Shown: in pieces, positions 13,555-36,220 of the stretch
How positions within the stretch are numbered: the stretch's first letter is position 1
How the letters are laid out: the number at the start of each line of letters is the position of its first letter
Sequence record: AF547987
DNA length: 39,043 nucleotides
Origin: Shigella phage Sf6
Reading direction: 5' to 3' (one strand)
Translations under genes and position numbers: made by a program
Notes under the pieces: generated by a model
Seen by the model: only the letters and a program-made list of their open reading frames with translations
Database searches by the model: none
Told to the model about the DNA's origin: nothing

Positions 13555-13718
13555 CTTCGCAAACACCAGGAACGTGCAAAAACCAACTATGTAGAACGCA
13601 ATGTTCAACAGATCTCTTTGCATAGACTCAACTCATAATTAACAAATCATAACTGACATTAGTGCAATGCCGGACAGGTTGCATCTTGTCCGGAATTGCT
13701 ACGTCCGGAGCAAATTAA

Positions 13719-15590
13719 ATGACAGACATTATAACCAATGTTGTAATTGGGATGCCTTCGCAACTCTTCACTATGGCTCGTTCTTTTAAAGCCGTAGCCA
13801 ATGGCAAAATTTATATCGGTAAAATTGACACTGACCCGGTAAATCCTGAAAACCAGATTCAGGTTTATGTAGAGAATGAAGACGGATCTCACGTCCCTGT
13901 TTCTCAGCCAATTGTTATCAATGCTGCCGGATATCCTGTGTACAACGGGCAGATTGCCAAATTTGTAACTGAGCAAGGCCATTCAATGGCTGTATATGAT
14001 GCGTATGGTTCGCAGCAGTTCTATTTTCAGAATGTGCTGAAGTACGACCCTGATCAGTTCGGTCCGGATTTAATTGAGCAACTAGCTCAATCCGGTAAGT
14101 ATTCGCAGGATAACACCAAAGGCGATGCCATGATTGGCGTCAAGCAGCCTTTACCAAAAGCAGTTTTAAGAACTCAGCATGACAAAAATAAAGAAGCAAT
14201 AAGTATCCTGGATTTTGGTGTTATTGATGATGGTGTGACAGATAATTACCAGGCAATACAAAATGCAATAGATGCCGTTGCTTCACTACCCTCCGGCGGG
14301 GAGCTGTTTATCCCTGCGAGCAACCAAGCGGTTGGGTATATTGTTGGATCCACTTTGCTTATTCCTGGCGGTGTTAACATCAGAGGGGTTGGTAAGGCAT
14401 CGCAACTCCGAGCAAAAAGCGGACTTACAGGATCTGTGTTAAGGCTGTCTTATGATTCAGACACTATCGGCCGTTATCTGAGAAATATACGAGTAACTGG
14501 TAATAACACCTGCAATGGTATTGACACAAACATTACAGCAGAAGACTCTGTCATCAGACAGGTTTATGGCTGGGTATTTGATAATGTAATGGTGAATGAA
14601 GTTGAAACCGCTTATTTAATGCAAGGGCTCTGGCACTCAAAATTTATAGCATGTCAGGCTGGAACCTGTAGAGTCGGTCTTCACTTTTTAGGCCAGTGCG
14701 TAAGTGTTAGTGTCAGCTCCTGCCATTTCAGCAGAGGAAATTATTCTGCTGATGAAAGCTTTGGCATCAGGATTCAGCCTCAAACGTATGCGTGGTCGTC
14801 AGAGGCAGTTAGGTCAGAAGCAATAATTTTAGACAGTGAGACCATGTGCATTGGTTTTAAAAATGCCGTCTATGTTCATGATTGCCTTGATTTGCATATG
14901 GAACAACTGGATTTAGATTATTGCGGCTCAACAGGCGTGGTTATAGAGAATGTAAACGGAGGATTTTCTTTCTCAAACTCATGGATAGCAGCAGATGCCG
15001 ATGGCACTGAACAATTTACGGGGATATATTTTAGAACGCCGACCTCAACGCAGTCACATAAAATTGTCAGTGGTGTTCATATCAACACTGCAAACAAAAA
15101 CACGGCTGCAAACAATCAAAGTATAGCGATAGAACAGTCGGCGATCTTCGTCTTTGTAAGTGGTTGTACGTTAACTGGTGATGAATGGGCTGTAAATATT
15201 GTCGACATCAATGAATGTGTTTCTTTCGATAAGTGCATATTCAATAAGCCTCTACGCTATCTTCGTAGCGGTGGCGTGTCAGTTACTGACTGTTATTTGG
15301 CTGGCATTACCGAGGTGCAGAAACCGGAAGGCAGATACAATACGTATCGTGGCTGTTCAGGCGTACCGTCTGTAAATGGGATCATTAATGTCCCAGTTGC
15401 GGTAGGTGCCACAAGCGGATCTGCAGCTATACCGAACCCGGGGAACCTGACATACAGAGTAAGAAGCCTTTTTGGTGACCCTGCATCAAGTGGTGACAAG
15501 GTTAGTGTTTCCGGGGTGACAATTAATGTTACTCGCCCAAGCCCAGTAGGAGTCGCGCTGCCTTCAATGGTTGAGTATCTGGCCATCTGA
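13719..15590 (+). CDS. tailspike protein (endorhamnosidase-type, Sf6-like)
   Basis: 623-aa ORF; N-terminal head-binding domain resembles P22 tailspike ([26 protein letters not shown]), remainder is different; last gene of the late operon. Confidence 0.85.
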
Positions 15591-15597
15591 TTATTTT

Positions 15598-15623
15598 AGG
15601 GGCCATATGGCCCCTTTTATTGT
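15598..15623. terminator. terminator between convergent tailspike and oac genes
   Basis: Palindrome AGGGGCC-atat-GGCCCCT followed by T-tract on the plus strand; lies between the two convergent stops. Confidence 0.75.
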
Positions 15624-16625
15624 TCAATCCAGGGATAATTTAGGCGAACTTCGTGTCAGGAATCTTTTTTCAACCAGATTCCATGAAAGATGGGACAAGA
15701 AAAGAACAGTCACGGCACTTAACAACATTGACGGGTAAAAACCCATGTGCAATGTGTTTATAACAACCTGCTGAACCGGGAATGCATAAATGTACACACC
15801 ATACGAGTAATCAAACCTGCCCTTAACCAGTGGGTCGCCAACGGATGTGCATATGGCTATTGTCGAGAATGAAACCAGGATATAGCAAGTCATAGTATAA
15901 TCAATGCCTTTGCCATAACTAGCGTAGGCGTACATAGCAAGCAAAGAAACTACAGTAATTTTAACATTACTTACATTCCATGACTTCTCATACATTGCCA
16001 TAGTGGCACCAAAAAAGAACGCCAGTCCACGCAAAGGATACAGCCATAACGGAATAGAGAACATTACATCCCTGTTTTCTGACACACTTCCAATTAATGA
16101 AAGAGAAACAAAAACCAACAGTATAACTATGAATGCTTTTCCGTTCTTTAGTAGGGCAACTGCTACTCCCGTTATTATATAACACAGGAACTCAAGCGGT
16201 AGGGTCCACAAACTGCCGTTAATTCCGGCATGAATTAAATGTGATGTAATGTCAGCATCTGGAGCCTGACTCATAAAAATAGAGCTTATGGTCTTCCTGA
16301 CAATGTCATGGCTAAAATATTCTGCGCTGAAGTCGTTAAGTATCCATCCAAATAAAAAATATGTCAGTATAGAGCAAGGGACCAGCGCCGGGAATATTCT
16401 TCTCGCTCTTTTAGCCATGAAATCAATAAAGGAATCACTCCTGATAGCTGATTTTGAAATCAGATATCCTGATATTGAAAAGAATATGATAACTGCAATG
16501 CCGCCAGCACTTTCAAAGCCGAACAGGTACGGCTCCGGCTGCCCAGAGAGCGCGTAGTGGTGACTGACCAGAACCATCATAGCTGCCACAAGCCTTGCCG
16601 TGTCAAAGCAGTTGCTCTTATGCAT
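15624..16625 (-). CDS. oac: O-antigen O-acetyltransferase (serotype-converting acyltransferase)
   Basis: 333-aa multi-pass membrane protein of acyltransferase-3 type, opposite strand to the late operon, between tailspike and int; matches the Sf6 oac location and size as I recall them. Confidence 0.8.
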   Translation of the reverse strand: MHKSNCFDTARLVAAMMVLVSHHYALSGQPEPYLFGFESAGGIAVIIFFSISGYLISKSAIRSDSFIDFMAKRARRIFPALVPCSILTYFLFGWILNDFSAEYFSHDIVRKTISSIFMSQAPDADITSHLIHAGINGSLWTLPLEFLCYIITGVAVALLKNGKAFIVILLVFVSLSLIGSVSENRDVMFSIPLWLYPLRGLAFFFGATMAMYEKSWNVSNVKITVVSLLAMYAYASYGKGIDYTMTCYILVSFSTIAICTSVGDPLVKGRFDYSYGVYIYAFPVQQVVINTLHMGFYPSMLLSAVTVLFLSHLSWNLVEKRFLTRSSPKLSLD

Positions 16626-16780
16626 TAAAATAAAGCCTCTAAGTTTTTGCGAGGAAAAATATCAGATCTTTCTGTCATAGTCCATTTTGGGTCCAGCCAG
16701 TGAGGTCATGCTCGCGTTGAGGCCAAAGAATGAGCATGAGCTCAGGTAGAGGGCAAGGCTCTGCTCAGGCATGGATTTGC

Positions 16781-17938
16781 CTACCTAACCTTCTCATCAA
16801 GCCAATCCGCCCACCACTGCATCATTTCTCTGCGCTTATCGAGATACTGAGCATGGTTGTAAATCCCACGCACAGATCCGCCGTTGGCATGTGCCAGTTG
16901 CACTTCAATAGCGTCAGCAGGCCATTCGTGCTCGTTCATAATCGTGCTGAATTCATGCCTGAATCCGTGACCGCTTTCCAGACCTTCATAGCCGATTTGT
17001 TTGATCACAAGTAGTACAGCGTTCTCGCAAATTGGCTTCTTCTTATCGTTGCGCCCGGCAAAAACAAACTCTGACACTGGTTTAGTGATTGAGCTTAGCG
17101 TAGTGAGAAGTTCAATCACCTGGTCTGACATAGGAACCACATGAATTTTGCGTCCCTTCATCACACTGGCGTCGATAGTGATAATCCTGTTTTCAAAATC
17201 GACGTTCTTCCATTGCATGGAACGAAGCTCTTTCGTTCTTAGGGCTGTGTAGCGTAAAACTTTGGTCGCAATGAGCGATACGATACTTCCTGAAAATGTT
17301 GCAAGTGCTTTGTTGAATGCCGGGATCTGGTCGGCAGGTAAAAATGGGAAGTTTTTCTTGCGGTATCCTTTCATGGCGTCTGCAAGGTCAGGTGCCGGGT
17401 TATATTTAGCCCTTCCGGTGACAATAGCGTAACGGAAAACCTCGCCGCATCTTCTGCGGGCTTTGTTGGCTCGCTCCATTGCACCGCGATCTTCAAATCT
17501 GCGGATTACTTCCAGCAGTTGCATCGGCTCAATATCCTGAATTTCAAGGCCGCCGATGATGGGTAAAATGTCGTCATCAAACATTTTTGCAAGTTCAGTT
17601 GCATAGCCTACTGACCAGACTTGCTTCTTGTGATCGTACCATTCCTTGTAAATCGCACTAAAGGAATTGTTGTTAGACGAAGCCTTTTTCGCCTTTACCG
17701 GATCGATGCCAACCGAGATGTCTTTCCTCGCAGTCCATGCTTTATCCCTTGCCTCCTGCAAAGTCATAAGCGGATATTTTCCGACGGTCAGGATTTTCTC
17801 CTTACCGTCAATCTTGTAGCGAAGCTGCCATACCTTTTTCCCTGACACAGGGACATAAAGGTACAGGCCATTACCATCGAGAAGGCGGTATGGTTTTTCT
17901 TTCGGCTTTGCTGCTTCAATCTGCTTAACGGTGAGCAT
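16781..17938 (-). CDS. int: tyrosine integrase (P4-like family)
   Basis: N-terminus LTVKQIEAAKPKEKPYRL.DG.GLYLYV typical of P4-type integrases; C-terminal catalytic region with HxxR and Y; I chose the ATG at 17938, the track ORF starts at a GTG at 17974. Confidence 0.85.
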   Translation of the reverse strand: MLTVKQIEAAKPKEKPYRLLDGNGLYLYVPVSGKKVWQLRYKIDGKEKILTVGKYPLMTLQEARDKAWTARKDISVGIDPVKAKKASSNNNSFSAIYKEWYDHKKQVWSVGYATELAKMFDDDILPIIGGLEIQDIEPMQLLEVIRRFEDRGAMERANKARRRCGEVFRYAIVTGRAKYNPAPDLADAMKGYRKKNFPFLPADQIPAFNKALATFSGSIVSLIATKVLRYTALRTKELRSMQWKNVDFENRIITIDASVMKGRKIHVVPMSDQVIELLTTLSSITKPVSEFVFAGRNDKKKPICENAVLLVIKQIGYEGLESGHGFRHEFSTIMNEHEWPADAIEVQLAHANGGSVRGIYNHAQYLDKRREMMQWWADWLDEKVR

Positions 17939-18099
17939 GGGTAAAAATCCGGTGGGTAAAATTATTTTATCCACTTTTTACCCGTCATGGAGTGCGGCTG
18001 TCAACGATCTGACGCGAACCATGACGAACTGTGAATCTACGGAAGGCTTGATATTCAGGGGATTTTGCGGACTGGTACGGATGGAGGCGAACTGATAAA

Positions 18100-18117
18100 T
18101 GGTGTCCCCTGCAGACA
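18100..18117 (-). other. attP core candidate (matches a tRNA 3' end including CCA)
   Basis: Minus strand reads CTGCAGGGGACACCA, which is the T-stem 3' strand, acceptor stem, discriminator and CCA of a tRNA (I recall this as tRNA-Arg argW); lies just upstream of int. Confidence 0.55.
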
Positions 18118-18187
18118 TCTACTTGAAGCAGCAGGGGATTGATTGGAATGGTGTTTTTTAGATGTGAGAAATATTTTACCCGCTATT

Positions 18188-18388
18188 TTACCCATTGGCG
18201 CGGCTTAAGAGCTTATTTTTGAATTCACAATGGTCACGATATAACCATCTTGCTCGCCCGTGGATAACTTTGGCTTTAGGCAGGTCGCCGGACTTAATCC
18301 GGTCATAAATGAAGGTTTTACCGAAGCCAGTATCGGCCATGATGAATTTCAAATCAACCAGTGAATCAGGCTGTAGTTCGTGTTGCAT
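18188..18388 (-). CDS. xis: excisionase / AlpA-family DNA-binding protein
   Basis: 66-aa ORF next to attP and int; sequence pattern of AlpA-type HTH proteins. Confidence 0.6.
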   Translation of the reverse strand: MQHELQPDSLVDLKFIMADTGFGKTFIYDRIKSGDLPKAKVIHGRARWLYRDHCEFKNKLLSRANG

Positions 18389-18430
18389 GAGTGCTATCTC
18401 CGAATAGGGAATCGAACCTGCAAATCAGGC

Positions 18431-18453
18431 AATAAAAAACCGCCATCAGGCGG
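18431..18453 (-). terminator. intrinsic terminator in early-left operon, upstream of xis
   Basis: Minus strand hairpin CCGCC-tgat-GGCGG followed by TTTTTTATT. Confidence 0.6.
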
Positions 18454-18496
18454 CTTGGTGTTCTTTCAGTTCTTCAATTCGAATATTGGTTACGTC

Positions 18497-18808
18497 TTAT
18501 TCGATGCGCACTCCTGGTATTTCGCCTTTTGATATTGCTAAGTCATAAATTTGCGCGGCACTATACCCATCTCGCATCCATGAATCTAAGGCGCTAACAG
18601 CCTCGCTACGCTTTTTATCTTCTCTCTCATTTTTGATATCAACGAGGACATCAACGCAATTAAGGCAAATGTGGATTTTGTCCTTACATTCGATCATGGC
18701 GGCTTTACCATGATTTCCGCCACACAGTGAGCATAAATCTTCAGGGTCTGGCTGGTATTTCTGTAACGTTAGAGGGTTGAATGTTGAACAGGTCATAATC
18801 ATCTCCAT
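18497..18808 (-). CDS. hypothetical protein (Cys-rich)
   Basis: 103-aa ORF; an internal ATG at 18796 has a better GGAG RBS; a terminator sits immediately upstream. Confidence 0.45.
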   Translation of the reverse strand: MEMIMTCSTFNPLTLQKYQPDPEDLCSLCGGNHGKAAMIECKDKIHICLNCVDVLVDIKNEREDKKRSEAVSALDSWMRDGYSAAQIYDLAISKGEIPGVRIE

Positions 18809-32878: not shown

Positions 32879-32886
32879 TGAAGTGG

Positions 32887-34091
<1,205 letters not shown>

Positions 34092-34127
34092 CTCTGTTCA
34101 GGTGGCCAAATTCAGTGTGCCACTTCA

Positions 34128-36064: not shown

Positions 36065-36139
36065 GGGTCAGTCGTATAAAGGTCATTACGGAAGGCTGTT
36101 AACCTTCTTATCGTGGTTCGAGTCCACGCTGTCCCGCCA
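36065..36139 (+). tRNA. tRNA-Asn (anticodon GTT), with two stem mismatches
   Basis: Hand-folded cloverleaf: anticodon arm GAAGG-CTGTTAA-CCTTC, T-arm CGTGG-TTCGAGT-CCACG, 3' CCA; T:T mismatches in acceptor (4:69) and D stems. Confidence 0.55.
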
Positions 36140-36144
36140 AACAT

Positions 36145-36220
36145 GCTGGTTTAGCTCCAATGGTAGAGCAGTCGCCTTGTAAGCGAATGGGTAGCGGTTC
36201 AAGTCCGTTAACCAGCACCA
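36145..36220 (+). tRNA. tRNA-Thr (anticodon TGT)
   Basis: Hand-folded 76-nt cloverleaf: perfect 7-bp acceptor stem GCTGGTT/AACCAGC, D stem GCTC/GAGC, anticodon loop CTTGTAA, T-loop TTCAAGT, 3' ACCA. Confidence 0.7.

Follow-up and report, generated by a model that had tools for sequence, protein, structure and literature searches.

Between the tailspike gene and the integrase gene of the 39,043-nucleotide stretch AF547987, which is called the window below in its whole length, one gene points against the late operon. This locus raises the question of what the gene encodes, which of the flanking signals belong to it, and what travels with it from one prophage to another. The window has a P22-like gene order, its first ORF is small-terminase-like, and an IS911-like element is present in the nin region. 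These features agree with published accounts of Sf6, and together with three partial Sf6 records they make it very likely that the window is the genome of Sf6. No whole-genome relative in the phage collection covered more than 67% of the window.

The gene leads to oac, the O-antigen acetylase gene of phage Sf6. It is a textbook example of how a temperate phage alters the receptor that it uses itself. The gene defines S. flexneri serotypes 1b, 3a, 3b, and 4b, with relevance to vaccine design, and its product is a model for the stand-alone AT3 enzymes. The biology of oac has been known from 1991 onward, with refinements as late as 2025, so its recognition here adds no new knowledge, and the feature is already known and well characterised. 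The additions made here are incremental. They concern a terminator that appears to be one-sided, where attP lies with respect to oac, the 213 bp that form the minimal upstream segment and contain a candidate promoter, and the copies of oac that Shigella and E. coli genomes carry at the lambda attachment site.

Identification of the Locus

According to the ORF list, the oac coding sequence occupies 15624..16625 on the minus strand and consists of 333 codons plus a stop, with the ATG at 16625..16623 and the TGA at 15626..15624. It is convergent with the tailspike gene (endorhamnosidase; 13719..15590, plus strand, 623 aa), which is the terminal gene of the late operon. It sits 155 bp downstream of int, an IntS-type gene on the same minus strand (16781..17938, ATG at 17938; 385 aa per the annotation of X59553). 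The intergenic region between int and oac (16626..16780, minus strand, 155 bp) contains the Shine-Dalgarno sequence AGAGG at 16636..16640 (minus strand), 10 nt 5' of the oac ATG, annotated as ribosome_binding_site in X59553. On the opposite side, a perfect 18-nt palindrome at 15598..15615 lies between the stop codons of oac and the tailspike gene. The segment singled out in the preliminary description (15598..16780) begins exactly with the first base of this hairpin and ends with the base adjoining the int stop codon.

The neighboring genes were then identified. The tailspike ORF matched the Pfam families Head_binding (6.4e-64) and Tailspike_C (8.2e-49), with a head-binding domain of the P22 type, and was 99.9% identical over 1927 nt to the Sf6 tailspike record AF128887.2. 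The int product matched Phage_integrase (3.9e-39) and also Arm-DNA-bind_3, and is a tyrosine integrase. The gene order tailspike-oac-int is that of X59553 and AF128887, and the ribosome binding site and the hairpin are likewise as in X59553. The Pfam matches and these two records confirmed the position between tailspike and integrase that had been assigned to the gene from the letters alone.

The oac region was compared with the two 1991 records of Sf6 oac, X59553 (CAA42132) and X56800 (CAA40136) (Clark et al., 1991; Verma et al., 1991). It was 99.96% identical to X59553.1, entitled ‘Shigella flexneri bacteriophage VI int and oac genes for integrase and O-antigen acetylase’, with 1 mismatch in 2694 nt, and 99.8% identical to X56800.1 (‘O-acetyl transferase’), with 3 mismatches in 1534 nt. 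The encoded protein has the 333 aa of Sf6 Oac (OacA), and 332 of the 333 residues were identical to each 1991 protein. Residue 169 is L in the window and in X56800 and Q in X59553, while residue 158 is L in the window and in X59553 and H in X56800. As each old record supports the window at the variant residue of the other, these differences look like 1991 sequence errors or strain variants. We therefore identified the segment as oac of the temperate Shigella flexneri phage Sf6 plus its flanking signals, with a probability of about 95%. There is no evidence against the identification of oac, and the weak points lie only in the flanking signals.

Family, Fold, and Conserved Motifs of Oac

Oac matched PF01757 (Acyl_transf_3) at 87.6 bits (E = 1.1e-24), above the gathering score of 31 bits, with residues 6-308 aligned to profile positions 3-314 of 326. 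In PHROGs it matched phrog_3333, ‘O-acetyltransferase’ (5.8e-68), and no NCBIfam model was matched. The protein contains 50% hydrophobic residues, and its hydropathy peaks fit a multi-pass membrane protein. An AlphaFold model built on 44 homologues reached a mean pLDDT of 89.9 and a pTM of 0.89. It shows ten long helices, which are predicted at residues 7-26, 40-62, 66-96, 137-159, 163-181, 195-216, 219-235, 241-261, 274-292, and 296-324. Ten transmembrane helices have already been published for Oac (PMC9833829). With both termini inside, 11 flanking K and R residues are cytoplasmic and 4 periplasmic, and the cluster K72/R73/R75/R76 at the cytoplasmic end of TM3 further supports this orientation.

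No C-terminal SGNH domain was found in Oac: the chain stops 9 residues past TM10 and carries no second Pfam domain. Oac has been classed as ‘AT3-only’ (PMC9558356). According to the model, Oac is an inner-membrane protein that consists of the AT3 domain alone, with ten predicted transmembrane helices and cytoplasmic N- and C-termini. The claim of a 333-aa membrane acyltransferase facing the late operon, made in the preliminary description, was thus borne out by the minus-strand ORF convergent with the tailspike gene, by the family match, and by the topology obtained from hydropathy, the AlphaFold model, and the charge bias.

The signature residues of the family were examined in the 44-sequence alignment, whose members span 33-55% identity. 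Oac carries R11-X10-H22 in TMH1 and R73-A-R-R76, the RXXR motif, at the cytoplasmic end of TMH3, and R11, H22, R73, and R76 were invariant. D8xxR11 (TMH1), F48xxxxG53 (TMH2), and S274xxxY278 (TMH9) were invariant as well, and correspond to the TmAT-wide motifs DxxR, FxxxxG, and SxxxY as defined in PMC12423673. Mutagenesis of Oac has shown R73, R75-76, SG52-53, FP78-79, SYG274-276, and FPV282-284 to be essential (PMC3467182), and the signature motifs coincide with these critical residues.

A search of the PDB with the Oac sequence returned nothing at E ≤ 1, and sequence search and structure comparison together found no AT3 structure there. The only coherent PDB neighbors of the Oac model were cryo-EM entries of human HGSNAT (8JKV, 8JL4, 8VKJ, and others; TM ~0.5, probability 1.00), which is thus the nearest solved structure. 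HGSNAT shares with Oac the ten-helix TmAT core and the trans-membrane use of acetyl-CoA (PMC12423673), but it has extra domains and only 11-12% identity (E ~0.07), and is a relative at the superfamily level and not a family member. Such a likeness is expected under the proposal of a TmAT superfamily (PMC12423673).

Function of Oac and Its Acceptor

Oac adds an acetyl group at O-2 of a rhamnose in the O-antigen repeat and thereby creates the group-6 antigen (PMC3630932, PMC3467182), and its acetylation of O-antigen has been shown in vivo (PMC3467182, PMC9558356). This rhamnose is named ‘Rha III’ in PMC3630932 and PMC6424224 and ‘Rha I’ in PMC9558356, which is a difference of numbering convention. 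Sf6 infects serotypes X and Y, and Oac converts X into 3a and Y into 3b (PMC9558356, PMC8973906). The O-antigen is also the primary receptor of the phage, which is bound by the tailspike endorhamnosidase, and its acetylated form hinders the Sf6 tailspike, for which it has ceased to be a substrate, so that the lysogen is immune to superinfection and protected against renewed adsorption of Sf6 (PMC9558356, PMC8973906). An O-antigen acetylase that alters the tailspike receptor in the lysogen had been proposed for this gene beforehand, and the near-identity to Sf6 Oac together with this literature upheld the proposal.

A catalytic mechanism for Oac can be proposed on the pattern of other proteins, namely the OafB model (PMC9833829) and the structures of HGSNAT. 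On this analogy, acetyl-CoA would enter a central pore of Oac from the cytoplasm and be held by the conserved R11, R73, and R76, which would line the pore. The thioester would then be presented to H22 close to the periplasmic face, and the acetyl group would pass to the O-antigen rhamnose. Because Oac ends 9 residues past TM10 and has no SGNH domain, the final transfer may be performed by the AT3 domain itself or by a partner (PMC9558356).

Several known systems resemble Oac. OafA and OafB of Salmonella have the AT3 ten-helix domain with R-X10-H and RXXR, use O-antigen rhamnose or abequose as acceptor, and fit the acetyl-CoA pore model (PMC9833829; PMC7448272). Unlike Oac, these AT3-SGNH proteins possess a periplasmic SGNH domain. 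Oac1b, OacB, OacC, and OacD of S. flexneri are, like Oac, stand-alone AT3 O-antigen acetyltransferases on mobile elements (PMC3630932; PMC9558356). Set beside Oac by description, they differ in their carriers and insertion sites; Oac1b catalyzes the same reaction (same sources), whereas OacB, OacC, and OacD acetylate other positions.

The nearest homologues outside Shigella showed about 52-54% identity, and the next Oac-like proteins among deposited phages only about 30%. The Serratia homologue adjoins gnd in an O-antigen cluster. In Buttiauxella, the homologue and a tailspike gene converge at the end of a prophage with a tape-measure gene, which indicates that the arrangement of a tailspike facing an AT3 gene recurs beyond P22-like phages. 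A further homologue, P0008, came from Pseudescherichia.

These contexts bear on the acceptor of Oac. The AT3 family is functionally diverse (PMC9558356), the database names of Oac homologues are generic (‘acyltransferase family protein’, ‘OafA/YrhL’), and no specific NCBIfam model covers Oac, so an AT3 acyltransferase acting on peptidoglycan, enterobacterial common antigen, or an exopolysaccharide could be imagined. However, the protein is practically identical to the experimentally characterised Sf6 Oac. Moreover, its 333 aa end after TM10 and include no SGNH domain of the kind present in peptidoglycan O-acetyltransferases. Its nearest non-Shigella homologues lie beside gnd or opposite a prophage tailspike gene, as described above. 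The published serotype-conversion and mutagenesis data refute another substrate in practice, and we regard its probability as negligible.

Attachment Site and Gene Order in the Prophage

To E. coli LD93-1 (L005/L013), homology was found in two blocks, an int-side block at 15451..18114 and a xis-side block at 18099..18443. Their overlap at 18099..18114, ATGGTGTCCCCTGCAG, is identical to the 3' end of the annotated tRNA-Arg gene (argW) and represents the attP core. The core is located between int and an xis-like ORF, upstream of int, and the order in LD93-1 is tRNA-Arg(argW)-intS-oac-tailspike stub-IS. Since attP is upstream of int, integration leaves oac joined to int, which is not the case for the gtr genes in the other converting phages of S. 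flexneri. In the other serotype-converting phages, int and the modification genes are at opposite ends of the prophage, according to PMC3630932. As judged from these junctions, oac is the second gene from attL in the Sf6 prophage, downstream of int (argW-int-oac-tailspike). The published yfdC-oac and yfdC-tsp PCR products agree with this order.

A location of attP between oac and int was rejected, since argW, int, and oac are contiguous in LD93-1 and L010 and the core is at 18099..18114. A 25-nt pattern of the argW 3' end was absent from the window, with only about 16 nt in common.

A Variable Slot Between the Tailspike Gene and int

Homology of deposited phages to Sf6 ends in the tailspike gene past the head-binding domain (~14060) and is found again only from 16788 on, 5 nt into the 3' end of int (HK620, N7, HF4s, and others). 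The int-oac intergenic region was found in Sf6 alone among the deposited phages. In relatives, the same slot holds other genes, namely gtrABC in HF4s, a 107-aa ORF in N7, and a different ORF in Gally. As far as such alignments tell, the position between the tailspike gene and int is a slot for variable cargo, which oac fills in an orientation against the late operon.

The gtrABC cassette of Escherichia phage HF4s has the same orientation against the late operon as oac, and like oac it alters the O-antigen that is recognized by the phage's own tailspike. In contrast to the single AT3 acetyltransferase gene, it comprises three genes for bactoprenol-linked glucosylation and has no sequence relationship to oac. 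P22 likewise carries a gtrABC serotype-conversion cassette in its tailspike-int slot.

The G+C content of the oac coding sequence is 41.8%, compared with 47.5% for the genome, and is the 20th lowest of 761 1-kb windows. The receptor-binding part of the tailspike gene is also low (44.4% G+C), so the contrast in composition is modest. The variable slot and the low G+C content fit the idea that oac is a ‘moron’.

oac in Bacterial Chromosomes

The exact Oac protein was indexed in about 1,478 assembly blocks. A distant-mode search of E. coli genomes for diverged oac variants returned only three identical copies. Eight contexts of oac were compared. Two of them had the order argW-int-oac-tailspike, five were at the lambda attachment site, and one had a further flank. 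In the five lambda-site contexts, from Shigella and E. coli genomes, oac was the outermost gene of a P22-like prophage beside ybhB-bioA. Here all that remained of int, upstream of oac, was an 84-bp stub, next to which came a lambda P-arm and the core GCTTTTTTATACTAA, and an IS interrupted the tailspike gene in most copies.

Homology to the window ended at 16864 in the attLambda prophages (L004/L009, L011, L012, L014, and L015) and at 16838 in L016. The break at 16864 was considered as an att junction and rejected, as it is the edge of the int stub and the real junction is the lambda core 213 bp further on. The 77-nt int stub itself (16788..16864, minus strand) is kept with oac in prophages with other integrases, and it is also found by itself in further phages, among them Gally and 434. 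On the upstream side, at least 213 bp of DNA travels with oac in all eight contexts. Terminal inverted repeats of an IS were not found in a search with a 9-nt seed.

One reading of these observations, which could just as well be right as wrong, is that the mobile unit is a host-specificity cassette made up of the receptor-binding part of the tailspike gene, the hairpin, oac, about 213 bp of upstream DNA, and the 77-84-bp int stub, and that it moved between P22-like prophages. Such a cassette would have been transplanted across integration modules, from argW/IntS to the lambda att site by bioA-ybhB or the reverse. The cassette, with an Oac protein that is identical throughout, would then have been selectively kept after IS elements destroyed the tailspike gene and the remaining prophage. 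The int stub found alone in Gally and 434 would be a recombination scar. An intact oac has also been kept in the decayed Sf6 remnants of strain SFL1520 (PMC6424224).

Flanking Signals and Transcription of oac

The palindrome AGGGGCC-ATAT-GGCCCCT forms a 7-bp stem with 6 G-C pairs and a 4-nt loop, 7 nt past the tailspike stop codon and 8 nt short of the oac stop codon. A T-run follows it on the plus strand only (TTTTATTG), which gives the tailspike transcript the tail UUUUAUUG. On the oac strand the sequence continues past the palindrome as AAAATAAT, or AAAAUAAU, without a U-tract. These features support a canonical intrinsic terminator that would serve the late operon, in the tailspike direction, only. 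As the oac transcript has no U-tract, the hairpin there more probably stabilises the 3' end or acts as a weak stop, and oac transcripts of the lysogen may run antisense into the tailspike gene.

On the upstream side, the weight matrix ranked a candidate sigma-70 promoter at 16684..16656 (minus strand), with the -35 element TGGACT, a 17-nt spacer, and the extended -10 element TGnTATTTT. It matched 8 of 12 hexamer positions plus the TG and scored 9.55; only 21 sites genome-wide, on both strands, score as high, and 0.064 such sites are expected in this 239-nt stretch. A stricter consensus promoter scan gave no site in the 155-bp int-oac spacer at its threshold. The candidate lies upstream of the AGAGG ribosome binding site and inside the 213 bp kept with oac in the eight contexts. 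Expression of oac in the repressed prophage is implied by the serotype conversion of lysogens (PMC8973906) and by the survival of an intact oac in decayed prophages. oac is probably transcribed from this weak extended -10 promoter of its own, ~30-60 nt upstream, and read-through from int possibly feeds its transcription as well. A search of Rfam with 15000..18600 gave nothing significant.

Two other readings of these signals were weighed. The preliminary description and both GenBank records treat the palindrome as a shared, truly bidirectional terminator for the tailspike and oac transcripts. Its stem is perfect and G+C-rich, with the same stability on both strands (-14.1 kcal/mol), it is close to both stop codons, and independent depositors annotated a ‘terminator’ on each strand, X59553 on the oac strand and AF128887 on the tailspike strand. 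However, canonical intrinsic termination requires a U-tract, the oac-strand RNA runs on as AAAAUAAUCA, and the consensus terminator scan reported the site on the plus strand only. The palindrome between the two stop codons therefore stands, while its sharing is doubtful, because the U-tract is present only in the tailspike direction. The claim of an upstream region proper to oac was likewise retained in part, as there is a candidate promoter, yet the gene directly upstream, in the same orientation, is int.

This proximity of int leads to the other reading, in which oac would be the last gene of an operon with int and would owe its expression to read-through from the int promoter. Terminator scan and RNA folding found no strong terminator between the two genes: the only such element is a weak terminator-like 5-bp hairpin at 16744..16731, and the fold of the intergenic RNA was not unusual against shuffles (z = -0.44). 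The location of attP keeps int and oac linked in the prophage, and X59553 annotates a promoter for int and none for oac. Against an operon, int is reduced to a stub of at most 84 bp in L009, L011, L012, L014, L015, and also L016, where an identical and intact oac is kept with 213-239 bp of upstream DNA. The clone of X56800 has just 329 bp upstream of the oac ATG, and published constructs are driven by the native ‘oac promoter’. The upstream DNA common to the eight contexts, 16626..16838, argues for a promoter within it and against a dependence on int read-through, and it includes the good extended -10 candidate. An int-oac operon is therefore improbable. With no strong terminator between the two genes, oac is nevertheless a probable and not a proven independent transcription unit; it has a candidate promoter of its own and a hairpin lacking a U-tract on the oac strand. 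The int-oac intergenic region also contains an imperfect 13-nt inverted repeat at 16701..16744.

Distribution of oac and Its Neighborhood in Other Genomes

Among 5,426 complete E. coli genomes, an identical copy of the O-antigen acetylase gene oac was found in three, namely CFSAN061762 (NZ_CP042901.1, read at chromosomal loci L004 and L009), LD93-1 (loci L005 and L013) and NCTC9967. One of these carriers, which came from raw-milk cheese, has a prophage integrated at the lambda att site that combines oac with an intact Sf6-type tailspike gene (99.4%). The other two retain just an argW-int-oac-tailspike stub, which is cut by an IS. These findings suggest that the carriers may be strains with a flexneri-like O-antigen backbone.

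A 3′-terminal stub of the IntS-type int (77–84 nt, corresponding to 16788..16864) was found in isolation in Gally, 434, lambda h434 imm21, and vB_EcoP-720R6, which are phages with other integrases, and the same stub adjoins oac in the lambda att site prophages. The stub has the look of a recombination scar that recurs at the border of the cargo slot, the variable stretch between the tailspike gene and int. On the other side of int, the attP core ATGGTGTCCCCTGCAG (18099..18114), whose sequence matches the argW 3′ terminus exactly, lies between int and a 66-aa xis/TorI-like ORF (18188..18388). The record X59553 terminates exactly at this core, where there is a PstI site.

In Buttiauxella brennerae (LXER01000017.1, locus L018, 6001..8835), an AT3 gene whose product is 52% identical to Oac is convergent with a gene encoding a Tail_spike_N domain at the end of a prophage. 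This prophage has a tape-measure protein and adjoins the host genes dsbB, nhaB, and fadR. The prophage is of an unrelated phage type and shows the same AT3/tailspike architecture.

Residue Numbering and an Internal Promoter-Like Site in oac

At residues 137–141, the published Oac mutant names 'GS 138-139' and 'WT 141-142' (PMC3467182) are shifted by one residue relative to the protein translated from oac (15624..16625), whose NGSLWT motif places these pairs at G137 S138 and W140 T141; the remaining published positions agree exactly. In our weight-matrix ranking, the promoter-like site placed second genome-wide was TTGACA-19 nt-TATGAT (16606..16570, minus strand), which is located within oac on the same strand and begins 20 nt past the ATG. 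This site is probably fortuitous, since its spacer is 19 nt; transcription from it would yield an RNA without the oac start codon.

Other Features of the Window

Positions 32879..34127 are occupied by an insertion sequence of the IS3 family, about 1.25 kb long, whose transposase ORFs lie on the minus strand. It coincides with a local G+C peak of 0.56 and fits the IS911 reported for the nin region of Sf6 (PMC3630932). An element of LD93-1 annotated as ISEc52-like is 94.6% identical to it, and a 99.8%-identical copy interrupts the Sf6-type tailspike gene in chromosomal locus L016. The window is without an immI region, as the gap between the gp16-like DNA-transfer gene and the tailspike gene is just 164 bp (13555..13718), whereas the relatives N7 and Gally, and the CFSAN061762 prophage, have arc/mnt/ant (immI-type) genes in this interval. 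An adjacent pair of tRNA genes, tRNA-Asn(GTT) and tRNA-Thr(TGT), is located in the late-regulation/lysis region (36065..36220, plus strand).
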